Shown in pieces: positions 2,195-63,654 of a stretch of DNA of 64,000 bases. The DNA lies in the IMG/VR virus record IMGVR_UViG_3300042878_001341, positions 1-64,000 of that record, one strand, 5' to 3'. The first letter of the stretch is position 1, and each line of letters begins with the position of its first letter. This stretch comes from a virus. The notes beneath the pieces were generated by a model. That model ran no database searches and had not been told where the DNA came from. It saw only the letters and a list, made by a program, of their open reading frames with translations. A program made the translations under genes and the position numbers.

Positions 2195-2225
2195 TATTGA
2201 TAAATATTATCAATAACATAAATAT

Positions 2226-3989: not shown

Positions 3990-4024
3990 AATTTTGTTTT
4001 TTATAAAAATAACAATAAAAAAGA

Positions 4025-4040: not shown

Positions 4041-4047
4041 CGACAAA

Positions 4048-4985: not shown

Positions 4986-4986
4986 C

Positions 4987-22500: not shown

Positions 22501-25500
22501 TAGCGAGTCTTAGAGAAAAATATAGGTCATACAATGAACCTAATGATTTAAGTTATATACTATCAACAATTAAGAAATTCGGGGCGGTACATAAATTACC
22601 ATACGCTTGGATTGTTAAATACGGATCAATTTGGCATAGATACAAAACTTGGAATGAAAAAGGTATTGATATGTTGGATGAGGTTTGGACTGATTTTAAT
22701 TATTTAGGTAATTATGATCCTGTTACTTCAGCGTCTACAAAGGTATATAGTTTAAACATTGAAGGATTCCAAAATAATATTGTCTTGGAAGACACGGTAA
22801 CTGCAACACCAAATTTGGTCACATATAATTCAACAACAATGAACACAGGGTTCTACCCTAAGTTGTATGATGATATGAATGTATTTCTACAAGGATTACA
22901 ACTATTTTCAGGTGTCACACAATTAAATGGTACTTGTACTATTACAGGTACAACAATGGATGTTTTAACTATTAACGATAATAATTTGGCACCTGGTTTA
23001 GTATTAGCGGGACCAAACATTGAAGTTGGAACAACAATAGTGTCACAAGTTACCGGTAATACAGGAGGTATTGGACAATATATTGTTGATATATCACAAG
23101 ATTCCCTAAGTAATGTGTTTTATGTTACCAACTCGGCAACAGGTGGGTATTCACAAACTGAAATACAAGGGTTAATTAATGATGGTAAGTTAGTGATGAC
23201 CACAAATTCATTGGGTAAGATTATTGAAATAAGTGGTTTTGATCCTAACGATAATGATAGGTCGTTAAAAATAACCCCTTGGTCAACAATTGTTAAAACA
23301 ACTGAAGGTGATAAATATTTTGTAATGCCGTCTTTTGGTTATACAAAAAATCAAACAAGAGATGAGTGTTTTAAGAATAACAAATTAAAAGTTGAGGTTT
23401 CAAGTAACCCTGCGGTGTTTAACGGATCGGTTAGATTATTTTGGGGAGCACCTAATTACGGGTATTTTGATAATACAAAAATTTCAAAACCAAATCCTGA
23501 TTCATACTTAAAAGAAATATTGTCAGATAAGAAAATACAACAGAACTTTTCATTAAATGGGGATAACACAAAATACAATAAGATATCTGAAATGTTCACA
23601 ACATTTGATACGGAAGTATTAGATTACTTTGAACAAGAGTTCTTGAATTTTAGTAGATCAATTTACGATTATAATACATTAGTTCCAAGTGATAAAGATG
23701 TTGAAACAGAATCTGAAAGATCATATAAGAACTTCCAATTGTTAATGAGAGAATTATTGGTTGTTGAAAAACCGTCAACTCTTAATTCTGAGGGGATGAT
23801 TAATTCGGTAATTGAAAAACAAAAATCAACTTTCCAAGGAATATTAACTAATTTCTTAGAGTATAATGTTGTATTAAAGATGGGTAATCCTTCTATGTTT
23901 GATAGAAGAACATTCTTAACCTTCTCAACTAAATTCTTAATTGATCCTGTATCATACCAAGGATATAATCAAGGGACAACAGGTGGTTTACCGTCAAATG
24001 GTGGGACAATTACATTGGCCCAATCAAAAAGTGAAAACCCTGAAACATGGAAAGCGTTAGAGAAATATGTAGGGTTTTCTGAAATACCAGAATTAGTGTA
24101 TTCAGACAATGGATCATATATTACTGACTTCTTTATTGATTTGAATGTTCAGTTTACTGAGAAAAATGTTAAAGATTTTGCTCCGTTGATTATGTTATAT
24201 GCAACACAAAAACTTAATAATTTTGAAATCCCAACAAATAATGTTGTTATTCCAAACCCTGTTCCGACACCTGCACCAAGTCCTCAAACACCTGGTGATT
24301 TATTAACGGTTGTAACACTTAAAGATACTAAAACAATTTCGGTATATAAATTTGGGACACAAAAATATGGTGTTTATAAAGACGCAACAGGAACAATTAT
24401 TTATACTGGGCCGACACAAAATGCGTTTCAATATCCTTTAAATAGTACAATAGTTGATCAAATTATTATAATTCAATATGATGCTTTAGCAACAACTCCT
24501 AATGATAATCAATTTATTATTAGTACTGTTAATATAACACCTTCACAAGTTACAACAACCACAACTACCCTTCCTATTGTTCAAAATTTAGGTAATAGTG
24601 TTGATGGTGTTAAGTTTTATGGTCTTATGGATCAATACCTTGATAAATCTGAAACTTATCTTAAAAATGTTATTTCTAATTTAATGACAGGTGTGAGAGC
24701 CGGATTACCAAGTATTACAATTGAAGGAGATAAAGGTAATAGAGCTCAACTTGAGGGAGAACAAACACGAGTTGAAATATGGGAAACATTTAAAGCATTC
24801 AATGACACATGGGTTGCAGGCGGAGACTTTAAATCAAAAACATTATTTGAAGATGTTCTATTATTTGATAGAGCAAGTAGAGATGTTGGTCAAAAAGTAT
24901 ATGTAGATATCTTTAAGGTTAAGGATTTAATTGAGGGATCTCTAACAAAGAATAATATGTTAGACATTATCTCAACAATACTTACGGAAAATAATTTTAC
25001 TTACTTCCCATTACCCGCTTACGCTAATTTTTATAACGCACAAGATGCCGAAAAGAATCCTGTACCAAGAAGTGAAGGGTCAACTGAGTTCGCAAATTCA
25101 TTTTGGGGAACGTTCTTAAATGTGGATTACAGAAACACATCACCTAAGTTCTTATGTTACTACGCAAACAAACCTAGTCAGTATGTGGACATGAAAGATA
25201 ATGTTGATTATAGATTTAGAGATGACGCTTTTGATCTTAGGAGAGCAAGTGACAATCCATTAGTTGAAAACCAATCAAATAAAAAGAATTGGGATAAATC
25301 AAATAAAGTGGTTGGTTTTAATATTGATATTAGTAATCAAAATCAGCAAATATTTAAAAACTTTAGTGTTGGTCAAGATGTTGGTAAACCTACTGCGGAA
25401 TCTTTGGAAATGTTAAATCAAATGGCTAACCAAAGTAGAAATAGAAGTACAGGTTCTCAAAACGTATCGTTATATAACCTTTATAGAAATAGAAGTTACG

Positions 25501-26432
25501 AATGTTCTGTTGATATGTTAGGTAATGCTTTAATACAACCAATGATGTATTTTAATGTGAGAAACATACCTATGTTCTCAGGACCATATATGATTACATC
25601 TGTAACACATCAAATTAGTGACGGAGATTTCAGTACAACATTTAAAGGTACAAGACAACCTTTTTATAGTTTACCTAAAATTGATAATTTTATTCAATCA
25701 TTAAGTTTAAATATTATTTCTAAATTACAAGAACAAATTAAATCAAATGAAGAAAAGACAAAATTATCAAGTGATAATGTGATATTCCAAAAAAACAATG
25801 TAATTTCAAATGTAACTGGTACTGATACAATAACTAAGAATCAAGATTGTTCAGATAAAATTAATAGTGGTTATGTTGGATATACACCTTTAGATAATCC
25901 GGCAATAACACAACTTTCATATAAAGATTTTAAAAAATTACTTGAGGATAGGATTGTTGCTAGTGGTATACCAAAAGAAACTACAAGTAATGGCGTAACA
26001 ACCATAAGTGATACTTTCTTAAAATTATCGGGATTTTTATTCTCGTTTATATATTTAGATTCGGCATCATCAAGTGGTTTAAAAGCGTATGAGAATAATT
26101 ATAGTACAATAAATTTAACTGAAACTTATGGGGCAATACTATCAACTACTGCTAATAAAAAATTCTATTGTGTATCAAGAGGTACTAATTTGAATATACC
26201 TGTGGTGTCATTTATATCTGCAGAAAAATTTGTGGATTTTGCTATTGCTAAATTTAAAGATAAACTATCTTTAATAAAAACGGCTAGCGATGAAGAGATT
26301 GTCCAATTATATGTTACTAAGTATCCTAACACCCAACCTGATAATGTTTATACTGAAATGACAGAACAAGATAAAAATACATTAAAAAATAAAGTAAAAC
26401 AGTCGGTAGATATATATAACTCATTAAATTAA
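19524..26432 (+). CDS. Very large baseplate hub protein (gp27/late-control-D-like termini)
   Basis: N-terminal LGITDIQV...VTVNLTDVKG. C-terminal RSYECSVDMLGNALIQPMMYF...FSGPYMITSVTHQIS...TTFKGTR, typical of hub proteins. Confidence 0.6.
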   Translation: MVDKGENILVEFDYDNITLIDPNKIVDNEGKVSDRLVKHENLVFYANLECNVLPRTKLALGSALNDSIRTVSVGKINFLNPGNKTFLDNRYTDEITGKGSVQGKGVNQPKLNAVQNPNKSDDFYLTQSTYSNGTPGAVDNGLLGITDIQVAIDTSFLPTVTVNLTDVKGRALFEGGNNSPYSAFFQLPYPMFYLTLKGYYGKAVRLPLMLQSFTSNFDNTTGNFKIVLKFFGYKYTVMSYVNWGAMMAVPHMYNNFVSTVQSITNTPAATNLEVVTAKPVSRGFQKMKELYSEYKAKGLVDDDFPEITITQLKARLDRFIKNILEKFTKENLGVLTELDNFQTQLTEFQKKVFFYGDSWFETYMDKTNSYSLKDTKEVVYTFKKEYSDPNKQAEAQTKLSGIFTEYQKLFESNSVAGKNGSYTVGGKTTKSEVPVNATVEKCEAKINPLTDIDYAKTYEERNGKPAKTQIELDTFIASNGVPPNTKFFVFEGVDHFIDITEKSAKDSSTLRRQIEEKISENLNEQLSNKETGVGFKPSIRNILAVFFAQGEAFIRLMDDVHSKAWDIRENKYRQQAIFGSNSSAQSVDVKSSTQNNEPIYPWPQVIRETLGDDKQEKFEIVYPGDKSIATMTKAYIPEIWPEVEFVEEFIKGYVDREPKNPDYGDESNVLTKPSRLSLNALDFPVTNEIFQNKEEIKFFYEIYERVMVNTYYSKLNRQSGYDASIFMVEAEDEKINILKSLGNDNPFLTQKLKQYLIDQNNFLTFLRHISNQGEGESWQKFIRGEFTINYIKNKTNTPFELFNQEILTNERSQPDVSLTDESKIIDYIGNQTSSNEFDFSDMYPITNFDWCKNYLADGKALQNVNLAYNTKDVLSYNTTHKTICNFKNDDTNDKKRPITNFNYKADVFSQNIDTSNFKTFYNNRKIEEQFTTEGNLNYSNYDGFVTDTQTTSILNTPYFINAIQSGVYNFRYKSDDLASYKQAAYLFLNSLPLASLREKYRSYNEPNDLSYILSTIKKFGAVHKLPYAWIVKYGSIWHRYKTWNEKGIDMLDEVWTDFNYLGNYDPVTSASTKVYSLNIEGFQNNIVLEDTVTATPNLVTYNSTTMNTGFYPKLYDDMNVFLQGLQLFSGVTQLNGTCTITGTTMDVLTINDNNLAPGLVLAGPNIEVGTTIVSQVTGNTGGIGQYIVDISQDSLSNVFYVTNSATGGYSQTEIQGLINDGKLVMTTNSLGKIIEISGFDPNDNDRSLKITPWSTIVKTTEGDKYFVMPSFGYTKNQTRDECFKNNKLKVEVSSNPAVFNGSVRLFWGAPNYGYFDNTKISKPNPDSYLKEILSDKKIQQNFSLNGDNTKYNKISEMFTTFDTEVLDYFEQEFLNFSRSIYDYNTLVPSDKDVETESERSYKNFQLLMRELLVVEKPSTLNSEGMINSVIEKQKSTFQGILTNFLEYNVVLKMGNPSMFDRRTFLTFSTKFLIDPVSYQGYNQGTTGGLPSNGGTITLAQSKSENPETWKALEKYVGFSEIPELVYSDNGSYITDFFIDLNVQFTEKNVKDFAPLIMLYATQKLNNFEIPTNNVVIPNPVPTPAPSPQTPGDLLTVVTLKDTKTISVYKFGTQKYGVYKDATGTIIYTGPTQNAFQYPLNSTIVDQIIIIQYDALATTPNDNQFIISTVNITPSQVTTTTTTLPIVQNLGNSVDGVKFYGLMDQYLDKSETYLKNVISNLMTGVRAGLPSITIEGDKGNRAQLEGEQTRVEIWETFKAFNDTWVAGGDFKSKTLFEDVLLFDRASRDVGQKVYVDIFKVKDLIEGSLTKNNMLDIISTILTENNFTYFPLPAYANFYNAQDAEKNPVPRSEGSTEFANSFWGTFLNVDYRNTSPKFLCYYANKPSQYVDMKDNVDYRFRDDAFDLRRASDNPLVENQSNKKNWDKSNKVVGFNIDISNQNQQIFKNFSVGQDVGKPTAESLEMLNQMANQSRNRSTGSQNVSLYNLYRNRSYECSVDMLGNALIQPMMYFNVRNIPMFSGPYMITSVTHQISDGDFSTTFKGTRQPFYSLPKIDNFIQSLSLNIISKLQEQIKSNEEKTKLSSDNVIFQKNNVISNVTGTDTITKNQDCSDKINSGYVGYTPLDNPAITQLSYKDFKKLLEDRIVASGIPKETTSNGVTTISDTFLKLSGFLFSFIYLDSASSSGLKAYENNYSTINLTETYGAILSTTANKKFYCVSRGTNLNIPVVSFISAEKFVDFAIAKFKDKLSLIKTASDEEIVQLYVTKYPNTQPDNVYTEMTEQDKNTLKNKVKQSVDIYNSLN

Positions 26433-33522: not shown

Positions 33523-33535
33523 ATATTAAAAAAAT

Positions 33536-51500: not shown

Positions 51501-51596
51501 GTGACTATATATAATAATAATTGTGTTTCTCTTAATGATGAAAACAATTTGGAATTAAATGTGGGGATAAATTTTGACATAACTTGTAATCAATAA
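48579..51596 (+). CDS. Baseplate wedge protein (P2 gpI / T4 gp7-like core)
   Basis: IPSQLLKNLAMTLGW...YYRNLILNSAYLFKSKGTRKSIEILLRLIG matches the gpI-like L..LA..LGW...KGT motif. Confidence 0.6.
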   Translation: MAVTKYTCPPQTPSGQGTFSDNLVGLQLVDGGGFTQANFEFTTSITEKQDRNFSIGAFSEPISLDSLNIQSITESRLIQANNFKVYPNFDLSQVTNFTLYGSLVKRISTSISHIINFFPAALEITSTLPNYSTTETALNIQYDPVEDETTFDVLINSLRNPFDIDYSSNSNRNFELLEIEVSSLRNFTLNYPKYSLFINGGEYPFIFYSPSNNTSTTLNFVVKGNPFSGNSISYDTVLIRPNDMYVNKTFNEAMDEVEQFLLNRSITPIYTSTFTVPRENEDGTVYLTTQAITFPKNGQWNLDITSLAFDNYLTTLNDFAANLDLYRTNLISRFLTTGAIKEFDTPDQKIEKVLQIYGRSFDETKKFISALSNMNNVNYNVKNDIPSQLLKNLAMTLGWDTNISPITNDQLLDSVFSTGTNEFSGLSVGMTPEELNYQYYRNLILNSAYLFKSKGTRKSIEILLRLIGAPEALIEFNEYIYIADQKINIEEFNGQYANLSGGTYTQQLPILDTTDIYSIQGQQFTGFTTTSIISDVNVFPEDYPIDNFGYPTMPSVSDSYFFQIGGGWFESTPQHRMPEQVDSTNSVFIGSNPNYQTTLLPFNYGEQYLQRYRTFPYMTLGYKLRRVVDNKKSWTDTDDGLRTNFDGGFNAYYPVGDDKLVVNVKNVDIFMNPAQGLVYDVWTMSRQYNYPIPNEGLNYIEPTRCNPTPNTPYPERGGIDWTEIKPKPKEKTFFEFAQTFWHNTINVRNRQFITDGKTGGYPTLQSIYWKYLESGQAINVPNDNFTYQTMIDYVNGLGTYWIKLIEQMVPATTIWNTGTKLENSIFHRQKFVWRRQMGCQLVPVPCDPCYAIGQLVPFDCPIQSVNCPIYPWGSDPLINSFGSVLGQVLTTYLDNNGYDLNNDCLANTITSEWYVDVRLNGTQIVDYKFFDGYGYSVSGTSFPTQVNWLNALYDSLPQMINEGLTFNIDETTNIVTIYNNNCVSLNDENNLELNVGINFDITCNQ

Positions 51597-54500
51597 TGGG
51601 GTTAATTAATATAAATGGGTTTTCCATAACTGGAGATTGTACAAACGAGGGATTAGGCGAAATTATTTTTTCGGTAACAGGAGATAGTCCTAATTGGTTA
51701 GTTACTGAAACTCCCACCGCAGATGTTAATTTACCAACATCTGCATTAACTGTATTTGATAATGTTTATTATTACTCAGGTTTAAGTGCCGGTAGTTACT
51801 TTTTAAATGTCTATGACTCAACATATACTAATTATATTGTTGTTAATTTCTATATATCTTCGGGTACCTGTGTATCAATTAATACGACAGACACTACTTG
51901 TGGATTTGATAATGGGGGTATAACTGCGACAACACAAACGGTATATGGTAACGGTGGAACCTTTACGTTATATGATATTAATGATAATTTCATCTCAAGT
52001 GGAACTTCAGTAAGTAATGAATATGTTTTCCCACCTGTACCTTCAGGAATTTACTACGTTATTGCCAATGACGGTGGTGGATGTACAGGTTGTAGTGAAT
52101 CATGTGTAGTTAGAGAGTCATTTCCATTTGATTATGGTTATTACGTTGTTAATGACGGAAGTTGTATAGGTAGTGATGGTAGTGGTAAAATATTTTTAAC
52201 GGGTTTATCAGACCCAAGTCTATATACTGTTAATTGGTTAACGAGTGTTAATGGTCAAACAGGGACTACGGTGACAGGTTTGACTGAAGGTTTATACAAC
52301 GTTCAGGTAACTAATCAGGATGGTTGTGTATCAACTAAAACAATAACAGTTACCGGGGTAGATCCGTTAGGAATTGGTGGTTTTATGACATATCCACCAA
52401 CTTGTTTCACTAATGATGGGGAAATAACCATTATTATTACGGGGGGTACTGCGCCATATTATATTGGATGTTCAAACGGTGATAGCGCGATAATTTTTAA
52501 TAATGAATATACATTTACTGATTTATTTTCGGGAACGTATAATTTTAATATTATAGATGCTGGTCTCTGTAAAGTGTCGGGAACAACATCTATTAATACG
52601 TCAAATAGTTTTCAAGTATTAAGTGTTGATACGACAAATTCAATGTGTAATGACAATTCAGGATCAGTTACAATTACGTTAATTGGATCAGGATATTATA
52701 CGTATAGTTTAACGGATTCATTACATGATACAACAAGTTTTGGTCCTACAACTAATATAGTTCAAGTATTTGATACGTTGTCTTCAGGTGATTATGATTT
52801 AGTTATTACCGATGGAGTTTGTGATTATGAAACAACAATTACAATTCATAATACTGAAAAATTTACAATCTCGGCTATAACTGAAGATACTACTTGCGGG
52901 TTAAATAATGGGTCAATACAATTATTAGCAAGTACAGGTGGAACTTTACCTTATCAATATGAAATAACAGGTTTTCCACCATCCTCAACGACTACATTTA
53001 ATAATTTAGCGTCTGGTAATTATGTTGGAACAGTTACAGATAATACGGGTTGTTCTCAAAGTTTAAATATATTTGTTAATAACTCTAATGGTGTCTTTTT
53101 TGATTTAGTTGTTGACCAACCAACAAGTGGGGATAATGGTCAAATTGAAACTATTATATATGACGGAACACCTATATTCACCTATGATTGGAGTCCTAAT
53201 GTTAATGGTCAAACAGGGACTACGGTGACAGGTTTGACTGCGGGTACCTATAGTTTAGAGGTAACAGATTCAAGTGGATGTACATTAACAAAAACTGTGA
53301 CTTTATCAGGTACTGAAAAAAAATTAAGTTATCAAACATATAATATATGTAATGATAATTTCCAAAATACTGGAATACTCGGTAAAAGAGGTATGCAACA
53401 GATGTTAACCGAAGGGTTTAAAGATTTAACATATGATGATACAGGATGTATTTTAAATACTGCAAATTTTATTGCGGATGTAACAGTTGATGGAGAAAAC
53501 ACACAACAATCATTTTATGTATCGTCAGGTTTAACTGATTATCCTTCAGATTATGTGTGGGGTGAAACATTAACTGAACTTTTACAAAGTTATAGCGGAA
53601 TTAGTAAAGTTGAAATTAATTACTCAACTAATGAGATTAAAATTTATAACAAATGTGTGGAAATAGACGGGTGTCAACCTGAAACAATTTATTATTTGTC
53701 TGATGCGAATATTGTAATTAATCTAAAATTAGAATACAATATTTCTTGTCAACAATGTATTACAACCCCAACTCCAACCCCAACTCAAACTTTAACTCAA
53801 ACTCCAACACAAACACAAACGCAAACTCCTACACAAACCCCAACTCAAACTTTGACTCAAACACCAACTCCTACGCAAACACAAACGCCAACACCAACTC
53901 AAACTTTAACTCAAACACCAACTCAAACACAAACACCTACGCTAACCCCAACTCAAACTTTGACTCAAACACCTACACCGACTCAAACAGAAACTCAAAT
54001 ACTTACACCTACACCTACGCCAACACCGACCCAAACTGAGACTCAAACGCCTACGCCAACACCAACTCAAACAGAAACTCAGACTCCTACGCCAACACCA
54101 ACCCAAACAGAAACTCAGACTCCTACGCCAACACCAACCCAAACACCAACACCAACTTATCCTGATACGGAATTTTTACAACTACAAAATATTATTGGTA
54201 CAGATCCAATGATTGTGTCTTTTAAAACCGCACCAGATAGTAGTTTTAATATAAATTGGGGGGATGGGTCATCAGAATTTGTTAATATAACTGATCCACC
54301 GTACAATCCTACTTTTAGTGCGTATACCTATACTCATAATTATGTAGGTAGTTTAAACACTGCGATTTTTGAAGACTTCCGAGTGTCATCATCATTATCA
54401 ACTGACAATATTCGTGAGATTTATTTAGCAAATGTTTCAGATATTATTGAAAATGTTTATACTTTTAGTGCATTTACTGCTTCAACTAAATTAACTTTAA

Positions 54501-55837
54501 CGGCTTGTACTTTAACTGAGTTCAATTCTAGCTTACCTAATACTCTTGTGAGATTTTACATATATAACAATTACGCACCATCAACTCAATACTTTAATTT
54601 TAATCCAACAACAAACTTAGCATTATTACCTAGTTTTGTAGAGTTAATTATTTCAAATACTGATATGTCAGGGTTTACATATGATTTTTCAGGAAGTAGT
54701 TCATTACAAACTCTTCAGTTAACTAGTAATAATAGTTTAACAAACTTGAATATGACAGTTCCGACAGGGTCATCGTTTTTTCAATTTTGGGTATTCGGTA
54801 ATACTTCGTTATCGGCATTAACAGTTAATAATAATTTATCGGATTGTATAAATCTTAATGATATACGAGTATATGGAAATACAGCATTAACAGGTTGGAC
54901 TTATATATTACCAGTGGCTGCAGATAACGTACAATTAAATTCAAATAGAATCCGTAATTTTGACATTGATTTATCGGCAAATACAAATTTAACTGATTTA
55001 AATTTAAATAGTAATCTTGTTTTAAGTTCATTCACAAATAGTATATCTGCATGTACATCATTGACAGATTTAAGATTAGATAATAACAACTTAACGACAT
55101 TACCTCCGATATTCCCAAATAGTATTCAAACATTAAGATTAGAATCAAATGATATAACGGGATACACAAGTAACTTCCCTACTAGTTGTGTTTATTTTGA
55201 TATGAGTGATTCTGTAGCGAGTTTACAGACTGTTCCCCAATGGTCGGTAGATTTAACGGGAGCAACGTCATTACAAACTTTCAATTTAAATAGTGTTGGG
55301 TTATCAGGATGGACAACACAATTCCCATCATCAATTAAAACAATAAGTTTTAGAAATAATCTTTTAACTGATTTTGATTTTAATTATACTACAGGTGCTA
55401 CATCAATAGATTTATATTTCAACCAATTAACTGGAACAACAAATTTATCGGGACACACTTCTTTAACTGGTTTAACAATAGGAAGTAATAACTTTACAGA
55501 TAGTTCTCCAATACTTGGAGGTGACTTCCCACCAACTTTAAGAACATTTGACATTGGGGGGTCACCATTATTAACAGGATGGACGACAACATTCTCAGCA
55601 ATGACCAATATGTTGTCATTAAATTTCCAAGGTACCAAACTTAAAACTGCGGCGGTAGATTACATTTTAGATGATGTTGCAACTATAGCGGTAGCAAATA
55701 ATTTATATAATAAAACACTTAATTTATCCGGTACTCCTCCAAACCAACCAGAATCCCCAACGGGAGGTGTGACTAATGCTGATTATATATTACTTACAAG
55801 TTCACCATATAATTGGACAGTAACTATAACCCCATAA
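51596..55837 (+). CDS. Adhesin/fibre-like protein: SprB-like repeats, Thr-Pro-Gln tract, PKD-like domain and C-terminal leucine-rich repeats
   Basis: Repeated TC...G.I...GGT.PY.Y...GL.AG.Y.V.VTD..GC units, a 132-aa TPTQT tract, NWGDGS, and LRR units such as LTDLRLDNNNLTTLP. Confidence 0.75.
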   Translation: MGLININGFSITGDCTNEGLGEIIFSVTGDSPNWLVTETPTADVNLPTSALTVFDNVYYYSGLSAGSYFLNVYDSTYTNYIVVNFYISSGTCVSINTTDTTCGFDNGGITATTQTVYGNGGTFTLYDINDNFISSGTSVSNEYVFPPVPSGIYYVIANDGGGCTGCSESCVVRESFPFDYGYYVVNDGSCIGSDGSGKIFLTGLSDPSLYTVNWLTSVNGQTGTTVTGLTEGLYNVQVTNQDGCVSTKTITVTGVDPLGIGGFMTYPPTCFTNDGEITIIITGGTAPYYIGCSNGDSAIIFNNEYTFTDLFSGTYNFNIIDAGLCKVSGTTSINTSNSFQVLSVDTTNSMCNDNSGSVTITLIGSGYYTYSLTDSLHDTTSFGPTTNIVQVFDTLSSGDYDLVITDGVCDYETTITIHNTEKFTISAITEDTTCGLNNGSIQLLASTGGTLPYQYEITGFPPSSTTTFNNLASGNYVGTVTDNTGCSQSLNIFVNNSNGVFFDLVVDQPTSGDNGQIETIIYDGTPIFTYDWSPNVNGQTGTTVTGLTAGTYSLEVTDSSGCTLTKTVTLSGTEKKLSYQTYNICNDNFQNTGILGKRGMQQMLTEGFKDLTYDDTGCILNTANFIADVTVDGENTQQSFYVSSGLTDYPSDYVWGETLTELLQSYSGISKVEINYSTNEIKIYNKCVEIDGCQPETIYYLSDANIVINLKLEYNISCQQCITTPTPTPTQTLTQTPTQTQTQTPTQTPTQTLTQTPTPTQTQTPTPTQTLTQTPTQTQTPTLTPTQTLTQTPTPTQTETQILTPTPTPTPTQTETQTPTPTPTQTETQTPTPTPTQTETQTPTPTPTQTPTPTYPDTEFLQLQNIIGTDPMIVSFKTAPDSSFNINWGDGSSEFVNITDPPYNPTFSAYTYTHNYVGSLNTAIFEDFRVSSSLSTDNIREIYLANVSDIIENVYTFSAFTASTKLTLTACTLTEFNSSLPNTLVRFYIYNNYAPSTQYFNFNPTTNLALLPSFVELIISNTDMSGFTYDFSGSSSLQTLQLTSNNSLTNLNMTVPTGSSFFQFWVFGNTSLSALTVNNNLSDCINLNDIRVYGNTALTGWTYILPVAADNVQLNSNRIRNFDIDLSANTNLTDLNLNSNLVLSSFTNSISACTSLTDLRLDNNNLTTLPPIFPNSIQTLRLESNDITGYTSNFPTSCVYFDMSDSVASLQTVPQWSVDLTGATSLQTFNLNSVGLSGWTTQFPSSIKTISFRNNLLTDFDFNYTTGATSIDLYFNQLTGTTNLSGHTSLTGLTIGSNNFTDSSPILGGDFPPTLRTFDIGGSPLLTGWTTTFSAMTNMLSLNFQGTKLKTAAVDYILDDVATIAVANNLYNKTLNLSGTPPNQPESPTGGVTNADYILLTSSPYNWTVTITP
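52246..52286 (+). repeat. 41-bp exact direct repeat, copy 1
   Basis: TGTTAATGGTCAAACAGGGACTACGGTGACAGGTTTGACTG, identical to 53200-53240. Confidence 0.9.
53200..53240 (+). repeat. 41-bp exact direct repeat, copy 2
   Basis: Identical to 52246-52286. Spacing is 954 bp, which is in frame. Confidence 0.9.
53762..54157 (+). repeat. Coding low-complexity tandem repeat (TP/TQ/TE units, 132 codons)
   Basis: ACN-CCN / ACN-CAA repeats encoding TPTPTPTQTLTQTPTQTQT... Confidence 0.95.
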
Positions 55838-55876
55838 TAAATTCACTTTTAGTTATTATCTAATATCTTTTACTTT

Positions 55877-56851
55877 ATGGGAGATATTCTTTTTGTTACT
55901 GCACAACCTGACGTACCTTATTTTCATTGGCAAGTAAAATTGTATACTCATAATTTTATTGAGAAGGGAATTAAACCTTGTCAGATCCATGTTATTTTTG
56001 GATTACAAAAAAAACAACAACCATCACAAGGGGCATTAGAATTATGTGATTACGGATTTAATGTTCATTTTTATGATGATGATCGTGAGAACAAATCATA
56101 CATACCAAGTATAAAACCATATCTAATTTATCAATGGTTAAAAGAATATCCTGAAAACGGTAAATTATTTTTCTTACACGATTCTGATATCATCTTCAAT
56201 AGATTACCAAATTTTGATAAATTACTTAATGATAATGTATCTTATTTATCTGACACGATAGGCTATATTGGTTACGAATACATTAAAGATTGTTGTGATA
56301 GATATGAGAAACAACATCCAACATCAAACAAAGAACAGTTACTCCAAGAGATGTCAGATACAATAGGTATTGATGTTGATCTTATAAAACAAAATCAAGA
56401 AAATTCGGGTGGAGGTCAATACCTTATCAAAAATACGGATCCACTATTATGGGGTAAGATTTATGATGATTGTACACCATTGTATAACCAAATGTTAGAT
56501 TACCAAAGAAGATTCCCCATTAATCCTGGTCAAATACAATTTTGGACTGCCGAAATGTGGTCATTATTATGGAATATGTGGAACTCAGGGTATGAAACAA
56601 AAATCACAAATGAGTTAGATTTTTCATGGGCAACTGATAGTATTGATATTTATAATCAAAAACCAATACTACATATGGCAGGTGTGACTGACCAATTAAG
56701 AACTACGAAATTTTATAAGGGAGATTTCATAAACAGAAATCCGATTGAGGATTTAAGGAATGACATTAATTTCTTTAATTATGTGGACAAAAATAGTTCT
56801 ACGATTAAATATATTGAAGTAATGAGGTCATTTTTGGAAAAAAATAAATAA
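55877..56851 (+). CDS. GT-A glycosyltransferase resembling plant peptidyl-Ser alpha-galactosyltransferase / Hyp O-arabinosyltransferase (GT96/GT95-like)
   Basis: Motifs occur in the family order: YFHWQ, Y....KP.....WL, DxD (LHDSDII), GYIG, GGG.Y, W..EMW and ILH. Assignment is from recalled family motifs, not a search. Confidence 0.7.
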   Translation: MGDILFVTAQPDVPYFHWQVKLYTHNFIEKGIKPCQIHVIFGLQKKQQPSQGALELCDYGFNVHFYDDDRENKSYIPSIKPYLIYQWLKEYPENGKLFFLHDSDIIFNRLPNFDKLLNDNVSYLSDTIGYIGYEYIKDCCDRYEKQHPTSNKEQLLQEMSDTIGIDVDLIKQNQENSGGGQYLIKNTDPLLWGKIYDDCTPLYNQMLDYQRRFPINPGQIQFWTAEMWSLLWNMWNSGYETKITNELDFSWATDSIDIYNQKPILHMAGVTDQLRTTKFYKGDFINRNPIEDLRNDINFFNYVDKNSSTIKYIEVMRSFLEKNK

Positions 56852-56868
56852 CTGATTATTTATTAGTA

Positions 56869-58197
56869 ATGGGAACTCAACCGATATCAGTAAAACCAAT
56901 AAATGAATGTGCGATAGTTACGTTATTTCCAATGACGGCTATATGTGATAGTGTTAATCCAAGTACTCCACAATCCTATGATGGATCAGTAAGTGTTATG
57001 GTTAGTGGTGGTACTCCACCATATAATATTACTTGGGAAGAAGGTGGATTAGGACCAACAAAATCTAATCTTGGTGTTGGAGATTACCGAGCAACCATTG
57101 TTGATTTTTATGGTGATTTTACGGCAAATACAATATGTAGTTTAACCGCAGAAACAAGTACAACCACAACCTCCACATCAACAACTACATTACCTGTTTA
57201 CGAGGATTTATGTATGTACTTTACGGACAACAATGGTCCAAATTCAGAAACACATCAGTTTTTATTTAATGGATATTTAAATGGAAAACCTACTTGGATA
57301 TCTGATGATGACTTATATAATATATATTGGAGTACAGGTACTACAAATCAATGGTTAGTTGACGGGTGGAGTAATGGTATCATTTACAATTCAAATACAT
57401 CCGTACCACCATTAACGGGGTGGCAATTCTTAGGTGGTAGTTATTCAGGGACATTTACTATTACCGTTTCTGAGGGAACTTGTGTGGATAATCCTATGGT
57501 TAATATATTAATAAGTTACCAATCTCCAACCTGTGGTAGTAATGGTAGTATTATTGTGACGGCAAATGGAGGAACACCATCGTACCAATACTCAATTAAT
57601 GGAGGAACAACATACCAATCAAGTCCTGTATTTAGTAATTTATCAAGTGGTATATATAGTGTTAAGGTTAAGGATACAAATGATGTAGCAACAACACAAA
57701 GTGTTACTTTATCAGGGCCACCACCTAATCAAACTTATCAAATAGCATTACTTTTAACGGGTCCTAACTCTTTTAACATAAATGTAACTCCTACATTACC
57801 AAGTGGGGTATATATCACTTTTGATTTAAAACATAATAGTGTATTTAAATTAGCACCTTCACCAACCGTGGCGGTATATAATAATGTTGTCACGGTTAAT
57901 GTTAATGGAAATCCGATTGCGACTCCATCACCTATGTTAAGTACAACCGCAACATTTAACCCTTGTGATTCGGGGTCTATATATACTAAAACAAATATCA
58001 CTACATGGACTACGTTAACGTTTAATCCAACAAGTACCATGAGCGGTACTTTTACAAATAATATAAGTCCGATAACACCTTTAGTTAATTGTTATTCGGT
58101 TAGTGGGTCAAGTGAATTAGTTATTACAAATGCAAAATTATATAACTGTGATTGTTGTAATATAACAATAAAAAACTCTAACCCTATTAGGATTTAA
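56869..58197 (+). CDS. SprB-repeat-containing structural/adhesin-like protein with Thr/Ser tract
   Basis: DGSVSV.VSGGTPPY..TW, PTCGSNGSIIVTANGGTPSYQYSINGG..YQSS.VFSNLSSG.Y.V.VKD and TSTTTTSTSTTT. Confidence 0.65.
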   Translation: MGTQPISVKPINECAIVTLFPMTAICDSVNPSTPQSYDGSVSVMVSGGTPPYNITWEEGGLGPTKSNLGVGDYRATIVDFYGDFTANTICSLTAETSTTTTSTSTTTLPVYEDLCMYFTDNNGPNSETHQFLFNGYLNGKPTWISDDDLYNIYWSTGTTNQWLVDGWSNGIIYNSNTSVPPLTGWQFLGGSYSGTFTITVSEGTCVDNPMVNILISYQSPTCGSNGSIIVTANGGTPSYQYSINGGTTYQSSPVFSNLSSGIYSVKVKDTNDVATTQSVTLSGPPPNQTYQIALLLTGPNSFNINVTPTLPSGVYITFDLKHNSVFKLAPSPTVAVYNNVVTVNVNGNPIATPSPMLSTTATFNPCDSGSIYTKTNITTWTTLTFNPTSTMSGTFTNNISPITPLVNCYSVSGSSELVITNAKLYNCDCCNITIKNSNPIRI

Positions 58198-58249
58198 AGT
58201 ATTGAAGTTAGAGGATAAAAAAATTATAAATAAACTATTTATTGATTAG

Positions 58250-60763
58250 ATGAGCTATATATTAAAAAATACATCAGGGTTAGTTAACACTAGAATAACT
58301 GACACAGGAAGATTAAAGTTATCACAAGGTAATTTTAACATTTCATATTTCCAAATTGGGGATAGTGAAGTGTCGTATAATGAATTACCAAACACTTACA
58401 ATCAATTTAATAGTGTAGTTTTAGAACCAAGTTTTAATAGTCAAAATAGTGCCGGATCTCCTGAATCAAACAAACAAAATATTAAATATCCATATTATGT
58501 GGATGATAATAATAGTAATACATATGGAATTCCATTTATGGATTCTGTTATTGAACCTGTTTATAATAGAGCTCCATTAAGAGGATTTTTCACAGGTAAT
58601 ACAACCGCAAGTACGGTTAATTATAGTGCGTTTACAGGATCAAAGTATGTTGTAACGTCCAATTACATTGTTGATATGTCAACATTAAATGGATCAAATC
58701 AAATAACAATAATCCAAGATATATGTGACCCAACAAACACTAATAAACCAAGTGTTGGAGATTTCATTACAATTTATTATGATGGTTTAGCGAAATATGA
58801 TTGTTCTTGTATTAATTTACCTACACCAACACCAACGGCAACAATAGGTACAACTCCTACATTAACTAATACTCCCACTGCGTCAAATACTAATTCTGAC
58901 CCATGTGCGTCTCCAACACCAACACCAACTCCATCGGCAACACCTTGTTTGACACCATCAAACAAACCTGTTTGTCCTATACCACCTGATCCGTCATGTG
59001 TTAAACCTGTTCATTCATGTTTTCCTATATTGACATATAGGATCGTTGATATTTGTGAGAATAATGTGACTTTGGATAGACCAACGCCTAATTATGTTGG
59101 ATTAAGTTCTAATTGTTTTGGTAGAGTATTGGTATACCCACCAAATATGACTACACTATATGATAGTATCACACCTCGTCCACATTGGGCGGATGATGTT
59201 ATCAATTTTGAATCTATTTGTGATATTGATCAATTTGATGTTAAAGTATGGAATATGAATATTCCTTGGACTGAGAGTCCTGCGGGATTAAGATCTACTG
59301 AGTATGAAGATTATACTTATTTTGGTTCCATTGATTATATTGGTAGTAAAGAATACTTTGGTTATAACTCAACCTCAGGTCAGACAGATACAAGTTATAC
59401 GTATTATTACAATTCATTTGATGAAATTGTTCAAGTTAAACCTGAAGAACAAAAGGCAATTGCTATAATTCATTATACAAACCAAACTATAGATTTCTTT
59501 TATGGTGAGAAATTTGCGTTAGAACCATATAACAATTCAAATCCTGATGATACGACAGGACAAGCAAGAAACTTTAAATTACATATGCCAACATTAATGT
59601 GGCATAAAAATCCTGAGTGTTGTTATGGTCAAACATTTTGGGTTGATCCTCCGGGATTTGATGGGAAAGATTTATTCCAAGTTGAATATATTAAGTCAAC
59701 TAAGAATACTGATATGAATCAACCTGGTATTCGTTATTATCACTTGTGGGACACTAATGCAAATGCAGATGGGTTACCAAGTAGAGTGGGTAAAGTATTC
59801 CCTGATAGTAAGTTAATTATTATTGATGACGAAGAAATAATCGCAGCATTATCATATAAATCAAATAGAAACTGGACATTAACGGCACCTCAAGTATCGT
59901 TAATTACTCCTAATACTTGTGGTGTAACCACCGCAACAACTGATGGTATTTTAACAGGTAGTAATGAAACAATGTATGTAACTTATATGTTGGGTAACTC
60001 TTATAATTTTACTAATTCATTACATTCTAATTATTATTCTAAAATTACCGGTAATAATAATGATTGTAATCCTGACACATCTAAAAATGTGGCGGTTAGA
60101 TTTGGTGCTGAATTTAAATGTTTAACACAACCTGGTTATAGTCCTTTAACGACAACAACAACTACACATCCATTATTAACAACAACAACTACTTATTTAC
60201 CGTTAACAACAACAACAACACTTTGCCCTACATTTTGTGATACACCTAATGGTTTCTTCGCAACTAAATTCCAAGTGATTGCACAAAAAGTAGTGACAGG
60301 ACAAAGACCTGATCCATCTAAATGGAGAGTTATTGATTATACTAGTTCATTAACCGCAACTACTATAAATGGGTATATTACTGAAGAAGGTTTAACAGGA
60401 ACTACATTTGTTATTACCCCTGATCTTTATAATAACGCACCGTATTACAATTTAAATAATTATATTCCATTAACACCACTTGGTACCACAACACCAAATC
60501 TTAATTTTGGTGACGAGTACTTTTTCTACGGAGCGTTTGAAAGTGATATTCAAGCGACAATATATGAGATGAGGTATAAAGTAAATTTAAGTTTTGCTGA
60601 ATTCCAAACCACAACAAATCCTACGTGGAAAAAAGGTGGTAATTCTTACATTACTGAAATTGCGTTACTTGATAGTAATAAAGATGTTATGGTAATTTCT
60701 AAGATGCAATCACCTGTATTAAGACAAGGTATCCAACAGTTCGTTGTTAAGTTAGATCTATAA
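58250..60763 (+). CDS. Tail-fibre attachment / collar-like structural protein with Pro-Thr and poly-Thr inserts
   Basis: N-terminal ITDTGRLKL...ISYFQIGDSE and C-terminal ITEIALLD...VISKM resemble the two halves of the P2 gpH N-terminal (tail-collar) domain. Confidence 0.5.
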   Translation: MSYILKNTSGLVNTRITDTGRLKLSQGNFNISYFQIGDSEVSYNELPNTYNQFNSVVLEPSFNSQNSAGSPESNKQNIKYPYYVDDNNSNTYGIPFMDSVIEPVYNRAPLRGFFTGNTTASTVNYSAFTGSKYVVTSNYIVDMSTLNGSNQITIIQDICDPTNTNKPSVGDFITIYYDGLAKYDCSCINLPTPTPTATIGTTPTLTNTPTASNTNSDPCASPTPTPTPSATPCLTPSNKPVCPIPPDPSCVKPVHSCFPILTYRIVDICENNVTLDRPTPNYVGLSSNCFGRVLVYPPNMTTLYDSITPRPHWADDVINFESICDIDQFDVKVWNMNIPWTESPAGLRSTEYEDYTYFGSIDYIGSKEYFGYNSTSGQTDTSYTYYYNSFDEIVQVKPEEQKAIAIIHYTNQTIDFFYGEKFALEPYNNSNPDDTTGQARNFKLHMPTLMWHKNPECCYGQTFWVDPPGFDGKDLFQVEYIKSTKNTDMNQPGIRYYHLWDTNANADGLPSRVGKVFPDSKLIIIDDEEIIAALSYKSNRNWTLTAPQVSLITPNTCGVTTATTDGILTGSNETMYVTYMLGNSYNFTNSLHSNYYSKITGNNNDCNPDTSKNVAVRFGAEFKCLTQPGYSPLTTTTTTHPLLTTTTTYLPLTTTTTLCPTFCDTPNGFFATKFQVIAQKVVTGQRPDPSKWRVIDYTSSLTATTINGYITEEGLTGTTFVITPDLYNNAPYYNLNNYIPLTPLGTTTPNLNFGDEYFFYGAFESDIQATIYEMRYKVNLSFAEFQTTTNPTWKKGGNSYITEIALLDSNKDVMVISKMQSPVLRQGIQQFVVKLDL

Positions 60764-60813
60764 AACTTTAGTTTTATCTTCTTGTCATTATATTATAATA
60801 AAACAATCTTTGT

Positions 60814-61422
60814 ATGAGAACACCAATTAAAAATTCGCCCAAAGTTTTGGGTTTAGATATATCAACCAAGACAATAGGGTGGGCACTTTTTGACATTCAA
60901 ACTCAAGAACTATTGGAATTAACTCATGTTTCGCCAAGACCTAAAAATAAAGATACTGAGGAGAATAAAATGTTGGAATTAATCTTAAAATCTGAGGTAT
61001 TCAAAACAAAATTAGAAGATTATAAGAAATTAGGTATTGTTAGTGTTATTATTGAAGAACCATTATTAAATTCTAATAATGTTTATACAATCCAAACATT
61101 GTTAAGATTTAATACTTTAATTTGTAAAACAATTTATGATGTTTTAGGTATTGTACCTGAATTCATATCTACTTATAACTCAAGAAAATTTGCATTTCCT
61201 GAGTTAGTTCAAGAAAACGATAAAAAGAAATACGTTTTATTTGGAGGACTCCCTAAAGACATTGATAAGAAAATGATTATATGGGAATTGGTTGCAAAAA
61301 AAGAACCTCAGATCCAATGGCAATATACAAGAAATAATACTTTGAAGAAAGAAAACTTTGACCAAACAGATGCTTATACTTGTGTTTTAGGTTACATGAG
61401 AAGTAAGGAAATTTGGAAATAA
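60814..61422 (+). CDS. RuvC-like Holliday junction resolvase
   Basis: VLGLDISTKTIGWA, VIIEEP and FDQTDA supply the acidic catalytic residues of the RNase H / RuvC fold. Confidence 0.75.
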   Translation: MRTPIKNSPKVLGLDISTKTIGWALFDIQTQELLELTHVSPRPKNKDTEENKMLELILKSEVFKTKLEDYKKLGIVSVIIEEPLLNSNNVYTIQTLLRFNTLICKTIYDVLGIVPEFISTYNSRKFAFPELVQENDKKKYVLFGGLPKDIDKKMIIWELVAKKEPQIQWQYTRNNTLKKENFDQTDAYTCVLGYMRSKEIWK

Positions 61423-61448
61423 CCTACTTAAAAATACTGTTAATATAG

Positions 61449-61477
61449 ATATCGTCTAAAAAGACGATATTTTTTTT
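61449..61477 (+). terminator. Terminator between convergent genes
   Basis: ATATCGTCT-AAAA-AGACGATAT followed by T7. Confidence 0.7.
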
Positions 61478-61488
61478 ACCTAATAATT

Positions 61489-63654
61489 TTAAAGACAAAG
61501 ACCAATATTGGTGATCACAACAAATTTTGATGTGGATGTTGGTAATATTGATGAACATATTTTTAATGATGAATAACCATTAATATTTACTTCCGTTAGA
61601 GTACCGGTACTACATGGACTATATGTAAATGGTTGAGGACTAATATATGAGTTCTCAATTAAATAGGTGTAACAAGTTGGTGTGGGTTTTGTTGGGGTAG
61701 GTGTTGGAGTACTTGTCATTGTTGGTGTGGGAGTCGGAGTATTTACAAAAACACATTGTGAACACACACCTTCTGATTCAGGTCCTAATATATCTGTTAA
61801 AATTATAGTACTAACACCGGCAACATCACTAACAAACCCATCATAGGTTATACAAGTTGAAATTCCATTAACAAATGATTGATACACATAACCTTCAGAT
61901 GGAGTTTCACCAAAAGGATCTAAAACAACGTCTGTTGTATAATAAAAGAATCCTGTATTACATTCCTTAAAACGTTTACTACCATTACATCTAATATAAT
62001 CATCAAATGTGTTGAATACCACCGATCCGTCAAAATTACAATTATATTGTGGTGATGCGGTTGGCGTTGCAATCATTTTAGCATTTGTTGCGGTAGGTGT
62101 TGGTGTTAAAACATTTGCGGTAACGGATATTCCTTTACCACCACAAATTTCGGTTGACGTTGGTGTTGGTGTGGGGGTTGGTGTTGGAGTTCCTGTAACG
62201 GTTGCCGTTGGGGTTATAGGTAACTCACAATCAAACACCACATCAAAAGATATTGGTTGACAATAATCAGTTGGTGTAGGAGTTGGTGTTGGACAAGGAC
62301 CTCCATTAAAGAAATCTTCACATAAATCAGGGCACTCAGTATAACAAGGAGATGGCCCAAATAAAAGACATTCACCATCTAATGCGTCTGACAAACACCA
62401 ACGATTATCAGTTGATGAAAAATAAATAAATAATCCACTTGTTGAACCGTACCAAAATAATTGACTATTCCATGTTCCACCACTTAGATATGTATCATCA
62501 TAAGTAACATCACCTGTGTTAATACAATAGTATTCAAACGGACATGGGATTGGGGGTGGAGTTGGTGTCTGTGTTAGTGTTGGTGTTGGTGTTGGTGTAT
62601 TTGGTACTATTACAATATCTGCACATTCTGGAGCTTGTGACGCTCCAAATATTGTATTTGGTGCGTTTTGTGTAAATGTTAGGGTGTATGGTGATGATAA
62701 TGAAAAATTATATATGGCCCCATTACTATTACAAACATATAAATCACCTGATGTCATAAACATCCCCCAAGGGTTTGCTATTGTGGGACTAACTAATACA
62801 TCCACCTCAATATTTCCTGTTGTGTAGTCATGTTGGGTTATATATCTATTTGCGCCTGATCCATTATATGAACAAATTAATTTATTAGGTGGTGAATAAG
62901 TGTAAACCATATCGCCAGCAATAACTCTTCCTGATGGCATTGGAAATTTGGTGGTAAATACTGCGGTTGAAGTTGTTATATCTATTTCAATTATATTACC
63001 ACCAAGACTACTACTTACTAATGTTGTATTATCAATTACGCCTAAACCATCACCAATCGGAGACGGTAGAGTTATATTTCTACTAAACGATGCGGAAAAC
63101 GGACATAACGTTATGTCGTACTCCTTAAGTATAGTTCCACTATACATCCATAATTTTGTGGTTGTATGGGCAATATCACTAGAATTTAGAGTTGGTGTAA
63201 AATAAGATGTGATATTTCTAGTTGTATTTGTTGAAAATACATATCCATATATTAAGGTACCGGCATTAAAAATAATATCACAAGTGTCCAAACAATATGG
63301 TGATGTAGGTGTTGGTGTACTTGTTAACGTTTGTGTAGGTGTAGGTGTACTTGTTAGAGTTTGTGTAGGTGTTAAAGTTGGTGTTGGAGTTAACGTTTGT
63401 GTGAGTGTCGGTGTCGGTGTCGGTGTTGTACAAGGTGTAATAGTTAGTATTTTGTTGTTAATAAGATAAGTGTTAATACCATTAGAAAAATATAAATTAC
63501 TTACCGACAGTAGAGTTGTGCAAGATGGGTCCGTAAATATTCCTTGACCAAGATTTAAACTATCACCATATACATTAATTGTGAATGGTCCCGAACATAA
63601 CCCTGCCGGACTTGCATTCCCAGCTGTAAAAACTCCTAAAAAATTACACGCCAT
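61489..63654 (-). CDS. Modular Cys-rich protein with beta-propeller-like domain and multiple Pro-Thr linkers (putative virion decoration/fibre)
   Basis: Six PT tracts separate small Cys-rich modules. Blade-like repeats SSDIAH, GDGLGV, AGDMVY and PWGMF..GDLYV. Confidence 0.6.
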   Translation of the reverse strand: MACNFLGVFTAGNASPAGLCSGPFTINVYGDSLNLGQGIFTDPSCTTLLSVSNLYFSNGINTYLINNKILTITPCTTPTPTPTLTQTLTPTPTLTPTQTLTSTPTPTQTLTSTPTPTSPYCLDTCDIIFNAGTLIYGYVFSTNTTRNITSYFTPTLNSSDIAHTTTKLWMYSGTILKEYDITLCPFSASFSRNITLPSPIGDGLGVIDNTTLVSSSLGGNIIEIDITTSTAVFTTKFPMPSGRVIAGDMVYTYSPPNKLICSYNGSGANRYITQHDYTTGNIEVDVLVSPTIANPWGMFMTSGDLYVCNSNGAIYNFSLSSPYTLTFTQNAPNTIFGASQAPECADIVIVPNTPTPTPTLTQTPTPPPIPCPFEYYCINTGDVTYDDTYLSGGTWNSQLFWYGSTSGLFIYFSSTDNRWCLSDALDGECLLFGPSPCYTECPDLCEDFFNGGPCPTPTPTPTDYCQPISFDVVFDCELPITPTATVTGTPTPTPTPTPTSTEICGGKGISVTANVLTPTPTATNAKMIATPTASPQYNCNFDGSVVFNTFDDYIRCNGSKRFKECNTGFFYYTTDVVLDPFGETPSEGYVYQSFVNGISTCITYDGFVSDVAGVSTIILTDILGPESEGVCSQCVFVNTPTPTPTMTSTPTPTPTKPTPTCYTYLIENSYISPQPFTYSPCSTGTLTEVNINGYSSLKICSSILPTSTSKFVVITNIGLCL

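Follow-up and report, generated by a model that had tools for sequence, protein, structure and literature searches.

A GT8-like glycosyltransferase family of tailed phages and its putative acceptors, the threonine-rich tracts of virion proteins

Introduction

What does a glycosyltransferase do in a phage genome when its gene is surrounded by genes for proteins with long tracts rich in threonine and proline (Thr/Pro)? The question is raised by a stretch of viral DNA of 64,000 nucleotides, positions 1 to 64,000 of the IMG/VR record IMGVR_UViG_3300042878_001341 (hereafter the window). In it, a preliminary description made from the letters alone had taken the open reading frame (ORF) at 55877-56851 for a plant-type peptidyl glycosyltransferase that modifies such tracts on virion proteins. 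The idea that this enzyme glycosylates Thr-rich tracts of the virion is strongly backed by comparative evidence, namely the co-occurrence of enzyme and tracts, natural presence/absence pairs of phages and the surroundings of bacterial copies. On these genomic grounds we consider it probable that the enzyme acts in the cytoplasm, O-glycosylating Thr tracts on the phage's own virion proteins.

A predicted GT-A glycosyltransferase

The gene in question is the following.

55877..56851, plus strand: glycosyltransferase of 324 residues; predicted soluble GT-A fold, GT8-like; member of phrog_4417

The motifs first noticed in this ORF (YFHWQ..THNF, YIPSIKPYLIYQWL, LHDSDII, GYIG, GGGQY, FWTAEMW and PILH) are all present in the translation, in that order. 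The protein matches the hidden Markov model (HMM) of the PHROGs family phrog_4417, of 'unknown function', with E 3.9e-71, residues 6-317 covering profile positions 3-289 of 293. The family is large and mostly phage-borne, with 831 representatives at 50% identity and >2,500 clusters at 90%, and 'hypothetical protein' is the label on every match with a source name. The enzyme finds no match in Pfam (no family at E <= 1), NCBIfam or the sequences of the PDB. Glyco_transf_8 (PF01501; CAZy GT8) matches neither the enzyme at E <= 1 nor any of 49 relatives at E <= 0.01, and the enzyme profile, searched against the PDB, yields noise only, plus a weak match to GNPTAB around the DxD motif.

In an alignment of 49 diverse members, W18, Y75, D102, D104, Y130, G179, W223, M227, F249, H266, G269, F279, K281 and Y312 are invariant; these include the DxD motif, D102xD104, and the downstream H266-x-x-G269 and K281. 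The AlphaFold model built from this alignment is highly confident (predicted local distance difference test, pLDDT, 97.4; predicted template-modelling score, pTM, 0.94). It shows the single Rossmann-like alpha/beta/alpha domain of GT-A enzymes, with the DxD after the central strand, and a helical insertion at about residues 128-172. Foldseek returns >370 PDB matches at E <= 1e-3, those listed being nearly all GT-A enzymes. At the top stand the UGGT catalytic domain, WbbM, XXYLT1, glycogenin, LARGE1 and LgtC, with E about 1e-7 and template-modelling (TM) scores of 0.4-0.5; the best solved matches also take in Skp1 alpha-galactosyltransferase and GlyE. Among predicted viral structures, viral GT8 proteins come next after members of the family itself.

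Model and structural matches thus bear out the identification as a glycosyltransferase, and they predict a GT-A enzyme of GT8-like type: the nearest structures are GT8 and GT24, and the downstream His followed by Gly and Lys is as in that clan. H266 is presumably the kind of His that binds metal in GT8 enzymes. Given the GT8-like fold, the enzyme is probably retaining, with a uridine diphosphate (UDP)-sugar as donor. The chain begins MGDILFVTAQPD, with residues 5-11 forming the first beta-strand; since it opens in this way, with no N-terminal hydrophobic helix, signal peptide or membrane anchor, cytoplasmic action is expected.

The preliminary description had set a protein-directed enzyme against ones that modify DNA or lipopolysaccharide (LPS). 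The top matches are indeed protein- or glycoprotein-directed GT8/GT24 enzymes, with no DNA glycosyltransferase among them, but the distinction from LPS enzymes is less clean, LgtC and WbbM being included. This bears on the idea that the enzyme glycosylates hydroxymethylated phage DNA bases as a guard against restriction. Phage glycosyltransferases often modify DNA, and the window holds nucleotide-metabolism genes such as the ribonucleotide reductase (RNR) at 32575-35965. Nevertheless, quite apart from the structural matches, the small temperate phages considered below carry the gene in virion modules, with no base-hypermodification gene annotated in the stretches read, and the link with poly-Thr would go unexplained. 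We regard a role on DNA as extremely improbable.

Thr/Pro tracts around the enzyme gene

Tracts were called by a window criterion on ORF translations, and those noticed at first sight proved real, being found in four ORFs that flank the enzyme gene and in the tail sheath. The tract-bearing features are as follows.

51596..55837, plus strand: fibre- or adhesin-like protein of 1413 residues with SprB repeats (E 2.9e-11), a Thr/Pro/Gln tract and then a leucine-rich-repeat region (weak LRR matches)
53756..54169, plus strand: longest candidate acceptor tract, (TPTQ/TPTP)n, 138 residues (721-858 of the 1413-residue ORF)
56869..58197, plus strand: SprB-repeat protein of 442 residues; tract SLTAETSTTTTSTSTTTLPVY at residues 91-111 (nucleotides 57139-57201)
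58250..60763, plus strand: conserved protein of 837 residues; Pro-Thr tract at residues 191-237 (nucleotides 58820-58960) and (P/L)TTTTT repeats at residues 628-657 (nucleotides 60131-60220)
61489..63654, minus strand: protein of 721 residues in which five Pro-Thr tracts connect small domains that contain Cys (nucleotides 63289-63447, 62545-62607, 62263-62304, 62143-62214 and 61666-61746)
6309..9650, plus strand: tail sheath (phrog_23, E 3.6e-55); tract within an insertion, residues 288-325 (nucleotides 7170-7283)
19524..26432, plus strand: tail-associated protein of 2302 residues; tract ITPSQVTTTTTTLP at residues 1671-1684 (nucleotides 24534-24575)

Some details of the preliminary description need amendment. 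Six tracts had been counted in 61489-63654, where the window criterion finds five. The tract-bearing sheath is confirmed, but the 'hub' label of the 2302-residue ORF is not; that ORF has only a weak 'tail protein' match (phrog_52, E 4e-4), and the baseplate-hub match falls instead on 11256-12020.

At 53756-54169 the DNA coding for the tract forms a tandem repeat that has diverged. Contigs from three lake-water metagenomes break here, at 53923-54116, and their summed depth over 53913-54243 is 1355-5534, compared with about 15 elsewhere. This suggests that PT-coding repeats are very common in lake DNA and fragment its assemblies.

More than 590 relatives of the window phage are present in IMG/VR, of which the best 80, with 56-95% identity to the window enzyme, were examined. 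A tract-bearing ORF lies within 10 kb of the enzyme gene in 78 of them, and the two exceptions end just past the gene. Orthologues of the 837-residue protein occur at 68 of the 80 loci. That protein has no family match, and its AlphaFold model, mostly beta with the tracts disordered, is so poor (pLDDT 51) that no fold is assigned. The aligned orthologues are 52-94% identical and share many invariant Cys, Trp and Tyr residues. Their tracts occupy fixed sites between conserved Cys while varying in composition and in length, from 8 to >100 residues, and Pro-Thr repeats and pure poly-Thr swap at the same position. Retention among relatives and the fixed sites indicate that the window tracts are more than chance features of these sequences. 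Through this swapping, the window's Pro-Thr tracts can be linked with the poly-Thr tags found elsewhere, Thr being the common denominator.

Isolated phages and natural presence/absence pairs

A tblastn search of 50,697 phage records detects the family in 77, with full-length identities of 24-38%. The hosts of the carriers are Enterococcus, Lactobacillus, Lacticaseibacillus, Staphylococcus, Lactococcus, Clostridium, Arcanobacterium and Chryseobacterium. In small and unrelated carrier phages the gene lies within the virion module, directly 3' of the tail-tube gene in phiFL1A, SA2 and phiCTP1 and directly 3' of the capsid gene in iLp84, bIL285 and R3.3. Virion proteins with poly-Thr tracts were found in all eight isolated-phage lineages examined, mostly encoded by adjacent genes.

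phiFL1A: poly-Thr C-terminal tails on capsid and tail tube
iLp84: poly-Thr C-terminal tails on capsid and tail tube; also a 125-residue protein with a 60-residue poly-Thr tract
VPE25: poly-Thr C-terminal tail on the tail tube
bIL285: poly-Thr C-terminal tail on orf50, probably the tail tube
SA2: poly-Thr in a tail of the tail tube, in an ORF annotated 'assembly protease' and in a 90-residue ORF
phiCTP1: poly-Thr tails on portal and tail tube
Bacchae: three small poly-Thr ORFs around the enzyme gene
Chryseobacterium phage MA9V-3: tracts of 72 and 32 residues in two genes just upstream of the enzyme

In phiFL1C (GQ478083.1, 25873-26728; gp60 and gp61) and phiFL2A (GQ478084.1, 23421-24276) the enzyme match is split in two. 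The enzyme is whole in the near-identical phiFL1A and phiFL2B, and the split is attributable to a frameshift or sequencing error.

Three near-isogenic pairs of phages, in which presence or absence of the enzyme was confirmed by a family-profile search of the whole records, provide a natural comparison. In each, the poly-Thr tails of capsid or tail tube are found only in the enzyme carrier. The first sets iLp84, with the enzyme, beside CL2 and JNU_P10, without it. The capsids are 98% identical, but that of iLp84 ends ...VLVPTTTTTTTSK and those of CL2 and JNU_P10 ...VLIPKP, while the tail-tube protein finishes with ...GETTTTTTTSK in iLp84 and with ...GGSGTGA in CL2. The second pair, both of genus Coetzeevirus, consists of R3.3 (enzyme) and Bassarid (no enzyme), at 70% and 73% identity; the R3.3 proteins end ...TSATTTTTTKAPTTTTTSSHA and ...SVTTTTTTSHA, those of Bassarid ...TASPKA and ...DAPGSGAA. 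In the third, the capsid end contains ...EATISGETTTTTKPTTTTT... in phiFL1A, which has the enzyme, and reads ...EATIEADKEVPGAVPGG in Streptococcus phage Javan47, which lacks it. The possibility raised at the outset, that related phages keep the tracts after losing the enzyme, is thus not what is seen: in all three pairs the enzyme-lacking relatives also lack the tags.

The slot behind the capsid gene is of some interest in itself. In CL2 (L085:7107-7286) and Bassarid (L292:3306-3631) it holds a short peptide of Ig-like (Big_2-type) appearance, with ...TITAVAVGSTTITATSG...; in carriers it holds the glycosyltransferase, to which iLp84 adds a poly-Thr ORF. Judging from these sequences, Ig-like peptide and enzyme may be alternative surface decorations.

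Bacterial genomes, fused copies and a reverse test

A scan of bacteria, with one genome per species, gave 123 loci, of which the best 80 were read; copies in ORFs of <1300 nt were taken as stand-alone. Most of these belong to Bacillota prophages; others were found in Flavobacteriales, Cytophagales and Pedobacter, and one in a Saccharimonadales genome. Two-domain fused copies occur in Chitinophaga, Pedobacter, Sphingobacterium and Mucilaginibacter. A poly-Thr ORF lies on the same strand within 8 kb of 41 of 47 stand-alone copies but of only one of 33 fused copies (Fisher p 4e-15), so that the latter can serve as an internal background. Typically, proteins of ~400, ~105 and ~210 residues with poly-Thr C-terminal tails precede the enzyme gene, the last of them stopping 0-14 nt before it. 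The stand-alone loci of Bacteroidota resemble the window in having large proteins with internal poly-Thr tracts immediately upstream.

The fusions are themselves suggestive. Among 89 long members the partners include GT7C-like (six), GT6 (three) and GT2 (three) domains and the Skp1-type N-acetylglucosamine transferase PF11397 (three). Protein O-fucosyltransferase, GT25, GT61, methyltransferase, sulfotransferase and radical-SAM with SPASM appear in single members. Fusion to other glycosyltransferases and modifiers fits an initiating enzyme whose product is extended.

On the Chitinophaga niastensis chromosome (L211:4556-12098), a homologue fused to a GT7C-like domain stands beside genes for a radical-SAM protein, a LanC-like protein, a GT1, an S41 peptidase and an outer-membrane barrel. 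From its gene content this looks like a cluster for a glycosylated ribosomal peptide. Together with the radical-SAM and SPASM fusion, it might be taken to mean that the enzyme tailors a small ribosomal peptide of this sort and not virion proteins. Such a context is, however, that of the fused chromosomal branch; stand-alone phage copies lack neighbours of this kind and sit between structural genes, with no small precursor-peptide gene seen nearby, and we think this alternative very improbable.

A reverse test started from viral contigs chosen solely by a DNA pattern coding eight threonines. The enzyme was found on five of 45 searchable contigs with such an ORF, in four of them directly beside it, which against the base rate of 77 in 50,697 (0.15%) has a binomial p of 9e-9. 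It was found on none of 20 contigs where the pattern was not read as Thr, but the difference between 5/45 and 0/20 is not significant (p 0.31).

Proposed function and its alternatives

Several observations weigh against glycosylation of virion tracts by this enzyme. Many bacterial loci are related prophages, so that the Fisher p overstates their independence; the three pairs and the spread across phyla are for this reason the better argument. Fused Chitinophaga-type members without poly-Thr neighbours imply that the family has other acceptors too. On 40 of the 45 poly-Thr viral contigs, mostly small fragments, no copy of the enzyme was seen, and the tag therefore does not require it. Clustering of tracts near the enzyme gene may reflect only the presence of fibre genes there, and in Bacteroidota proteins spacers of the Pro-Thr type are frequent and often carry no modification. 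The relatives' GT2 genes (see below) could be the real initiators in this lineage, and we found no paper reporting a glycan on any carrier phage.

Some of these points would suit plain, unmodified linkers and an enzyme with another target. This could be a non-virion protein, or a polymer of the host envelope (teichoic acid, LPS or capsule) whose glycosylation would mask receptors or exclude superinfecting phages. The contigs without the enzyme, the wide occurrence of Pro-Thr linkers, the abundance of PT-coding repeats in lake DNA and the LPS enzymes LgtC and WbbM among the best structural matches all lean in that direction. Yet the gene lies in late virion operons and not in lysogenic-conversion positions, and strictly lytic phages have it too. 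In three independent pairs, loss of the enzyme goes with loss of the capsid and tail-tube tags, and the contrast of 41/47 with 1/33 would remain unexplained. An envelope or other target is, in our judgement, unlikely.

A different possibility is that the tracts are glycosylated but the jumbo-phage enzyme merely extends a glycan begun by another glycosyltransferase, of phage or host. UGGT, XXYLT1, GlyE, LARGE1 and Skp1 alpha-galactosyltransferase, all top structural matches, extend existing glycans, and complete relatives of the window phage have, besides one copy of the enzyme, 4-7 GT2 genes elsewhere. Those of a complete 291-kb relative (G066:C1:218992-220652 and 271701-280704) are partly clustered and lie far from the fibre genes. 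The GT2 enzymes may extend the glycan, although another purpose is possible as well; in the remainder of the 78,962-bp record outside the window, no further glycosyltransferase was found. Against extension, the enzyme is the sole glycosyltransferase recognised in the structural modules read, the whole 36-40 kb temperate genomes not having been searched for others. If those phages have no other, glycan initiation in them must fall to this enzyme. In fused forms, moreover, its domain is usually N-terminal to the second glycosyltransferase. We consider a purely extending role improbable.

For glycosylation of the phage's own virion proteins, the following course of events can be proposed. The phage would make a soluble, Mn/Mg-dependent GT8-like transferase late in infection, alongside its fibre genes. 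The enzyme would recognise extended Thr-rich tracts and transfer a sugar from a UDP-sugar to the hydroxyl of Thr, perhaps also Ser, before or during virion assembly. In the jumbo phage the acceptors would be the Pro-Thr and poly-Thr linkers of the four flanking fibre-like proteins and of the sheath insertion; in small Bacillota phages they would be the C-terminal poly-Thr tails of the major capsid and tail-tube proteins. Assembly would then display glycosylated linkers or tails on capsid, tail tube, sheath or fibres. The particle surface would thereby gain a hydrophilic glycan coat, or else linkers that are stiffened and resist proteases. Candidate benefits are protease resistance, linker stiffening, less aggregation, epitope shielding and weak adhesion to polysaccharide matrices.

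A broader picture seems to us evenly poised between true and false. Here Thr tract and enzyme would form a portable two-part 'glyco-tag' module for cytoplasmic O-glycosylation of any surface-exposed virion protein. The module would have spread among tailed phages whose hosts belong to two or more bacterial phyla and which range from temperate siphoviruses of 36 kb to jumbo myoviruses of 300 kb. It would be the prokaryotic-virus counterpart of mucin and extensin glycosylation, perhaps distantly related to HPAT and SGT1 and with a sister branch that perhaps serves ribosomal peptides of Bacteroidota.

Phage genome, lineage and source

The IMG/VR record that holds the window is 78,962 bp long, with a CheckV completeness of 27%. 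Complete relatives measure 274-318 kb, which makes the window phage a jumbo phage, and from the genes for sheath, tail tube and baseplate it is evidently a myovirus. Besides the sheath at 6309-9650, its recognisable genes include the following.

10681-11169: tail tube
11256-12020: baseplate-hub-like gene (baseplate-hub match)
28-36 kb: replication and nucleotide-metabolism genes (UvsX-like recombinase, exonuclease, DnaB-like helicase and the ribonucleotide reductase, 32575-35965)
36529-38367: baseplate J
60814-61422: RuvC-like resolvase, closing a co-oriented run of large ORFs downstream of the baseplate gene

The window has a GC content of 32%, lacks Shine-Dalgarno sequences and encodes SprB repeats in two large ORFs, features which together fit a host among the Bacteroidota. 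Exact-match contigs of 51596-61500 are present in lake-water metagenome runs of 2018, 2023 and 2024, so this phage genotype lasts over years. A freshwater-sediment metatranscriptome contains contigs 90-95% alike over the enzyme gene and its neighbours, which form a small share of it and are no proof that this phage is transcribed.

Scanned for promoters and terminators, the region at 51-64 kb gave fewer sites than shuffled sequence did, which makes the result uninformative. The sequence TATTTAT occurs at 56858-56864, 5 nt upstream of the start of the 442-residue gene. It is not seen in the 39-nt gap upstream of the glycosyltransferase gene, which may therefore be co-transcribed with the gene of the 1413-residue protein.

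Significance

To our knowledge, phage virion glycosylation has hitherto rested on a few mycobacteriophages. Virion glycosylation as such is thus known, and what is new lies in the enzyme family, the recognisable acceptor tag and the host phyla. Our literature search found no paper on the enzyme family, on poly-Thr tags or Thr-rich capsid or tail proteins of phages, or on HPAT-like phage enzymes.

If the proposed function is correct, sugar-coated particles would be common, both in fresh water, where phages of Bacteroidota are abundant, and among phages that infect Enterococcus, Staphylococcus, Lactobacillus, Lactococcus, Clostridium and Listeria. Consequences would follow for how antibodies recognise therapeutic phages and how these are cleared, for the stability and stickiness of particles, for the identification of virion proteins by mass spectrometry and for the reading of cryo-electron microscopy density. 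Glyco-engineering would gain a short, genetically encoded tag and a single soluble enzyme. The claim can be tested directly in cultured phages, which occur as natural plus/minus pairs.

Comparison with known systems

The plant and algal enzymes HPAT (GT95) and SGT1 (GT96, peptidyl-serine alpha-galactosyltransferase) carry out peptide O-glycosylation of extended tracts rich in Pro and hydroxy-amino acids, the kind of activity proposed here for the phage enzyme too. The 'plant-type' label had been based on a likeness in ordered motifs to these enzymes, put forward in the preliminary description. Membership of GT95 or GT96 is nevertheless not shown. For GT95, the Pfam HPAT family (PF23452; cut-off 23.9 bits) gives no significant HMMER match. 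In the genome holding the window it has none at E <= 10, and DUF7164 has no match there either. Among relatives PF23452 matches 0/49 and 0/89 at E <= 0.01, and 2/117 further ones at E >= 0.023, which is noise level. A search for its members in 401 Myxococcota genomes and five other bacterial genomes gave no match, and in a second homologue search, for HPAT-labelled relatives, none of the 120 sequences listed bore a Pfam label.

The protein-language-model search of the ESM Atlas gives a different impression, 18 of the 30 nearest named clusters carrying HPAT on 10-58% of their members, with scores of 0.96-0.97, followed by DUF7164. This nearness is a lead that falls short of an alignment. Since HPAT has been described as GT8-like, a distant common origin is plausible. 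Differences are that HPAT has a type II Golgi membrane anchor, where the phage enzyme has no N-terminal anchor, and that the acceptor of the phage enzyme would be Thr, while those of the plant enzymes are hydroxyproline or Ser.

Many of the retaining GT8/GT24-type enzymes nearest to the phage enzyme act on proteins. From glycogenin, LgtC, Skp1 alpha-galactosyltransferase, UGGT and GlyE of the pneumococcal serine-rich-repeat pathway it is set apart by an identity of just 7-12% at TM scores of 0.4-0.5, and by its helical insertion. Capsid glycosylation is also known in chloroviruses, where the glycans of PBCV-1 are N-linked at atypical sites. That virus is eukaryotic, and its A64R is a far weaker structural match than are the GT8 enzymes.

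The closest functional parallel is found in mycobacteriophages, whose virion O-glycosylation was reportedly described by Freeman et al. in 2023. According to two papers that cite this work, phage-encoded glycosyltransferases O-glycosylate the virions of Che8, Corndog and Myrna, and glycans are reported to sit on the capsid and tail-tube subunits, at their C-termini (PMC12363180, PMC12619734). The enzyme family is a different one, the window enzyme finding no Mycobacterium phage by tblastn even at E <= 10. Its carriers infect Bacillota and Bacteroidota, and the putative acceptor is a recognisable poly-Thr or Pro-Thr tag. In the jumbo phage of the window, the tags lie inside fibre proteins and the sheath, as linkers and not as C-terminal tails. 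In the carriers from Bacillota, in contrast, the poly-Thr tails stand at the very positions, the C-termini of capsid and tail tube, where the mycobacteriophage glycans are reported.

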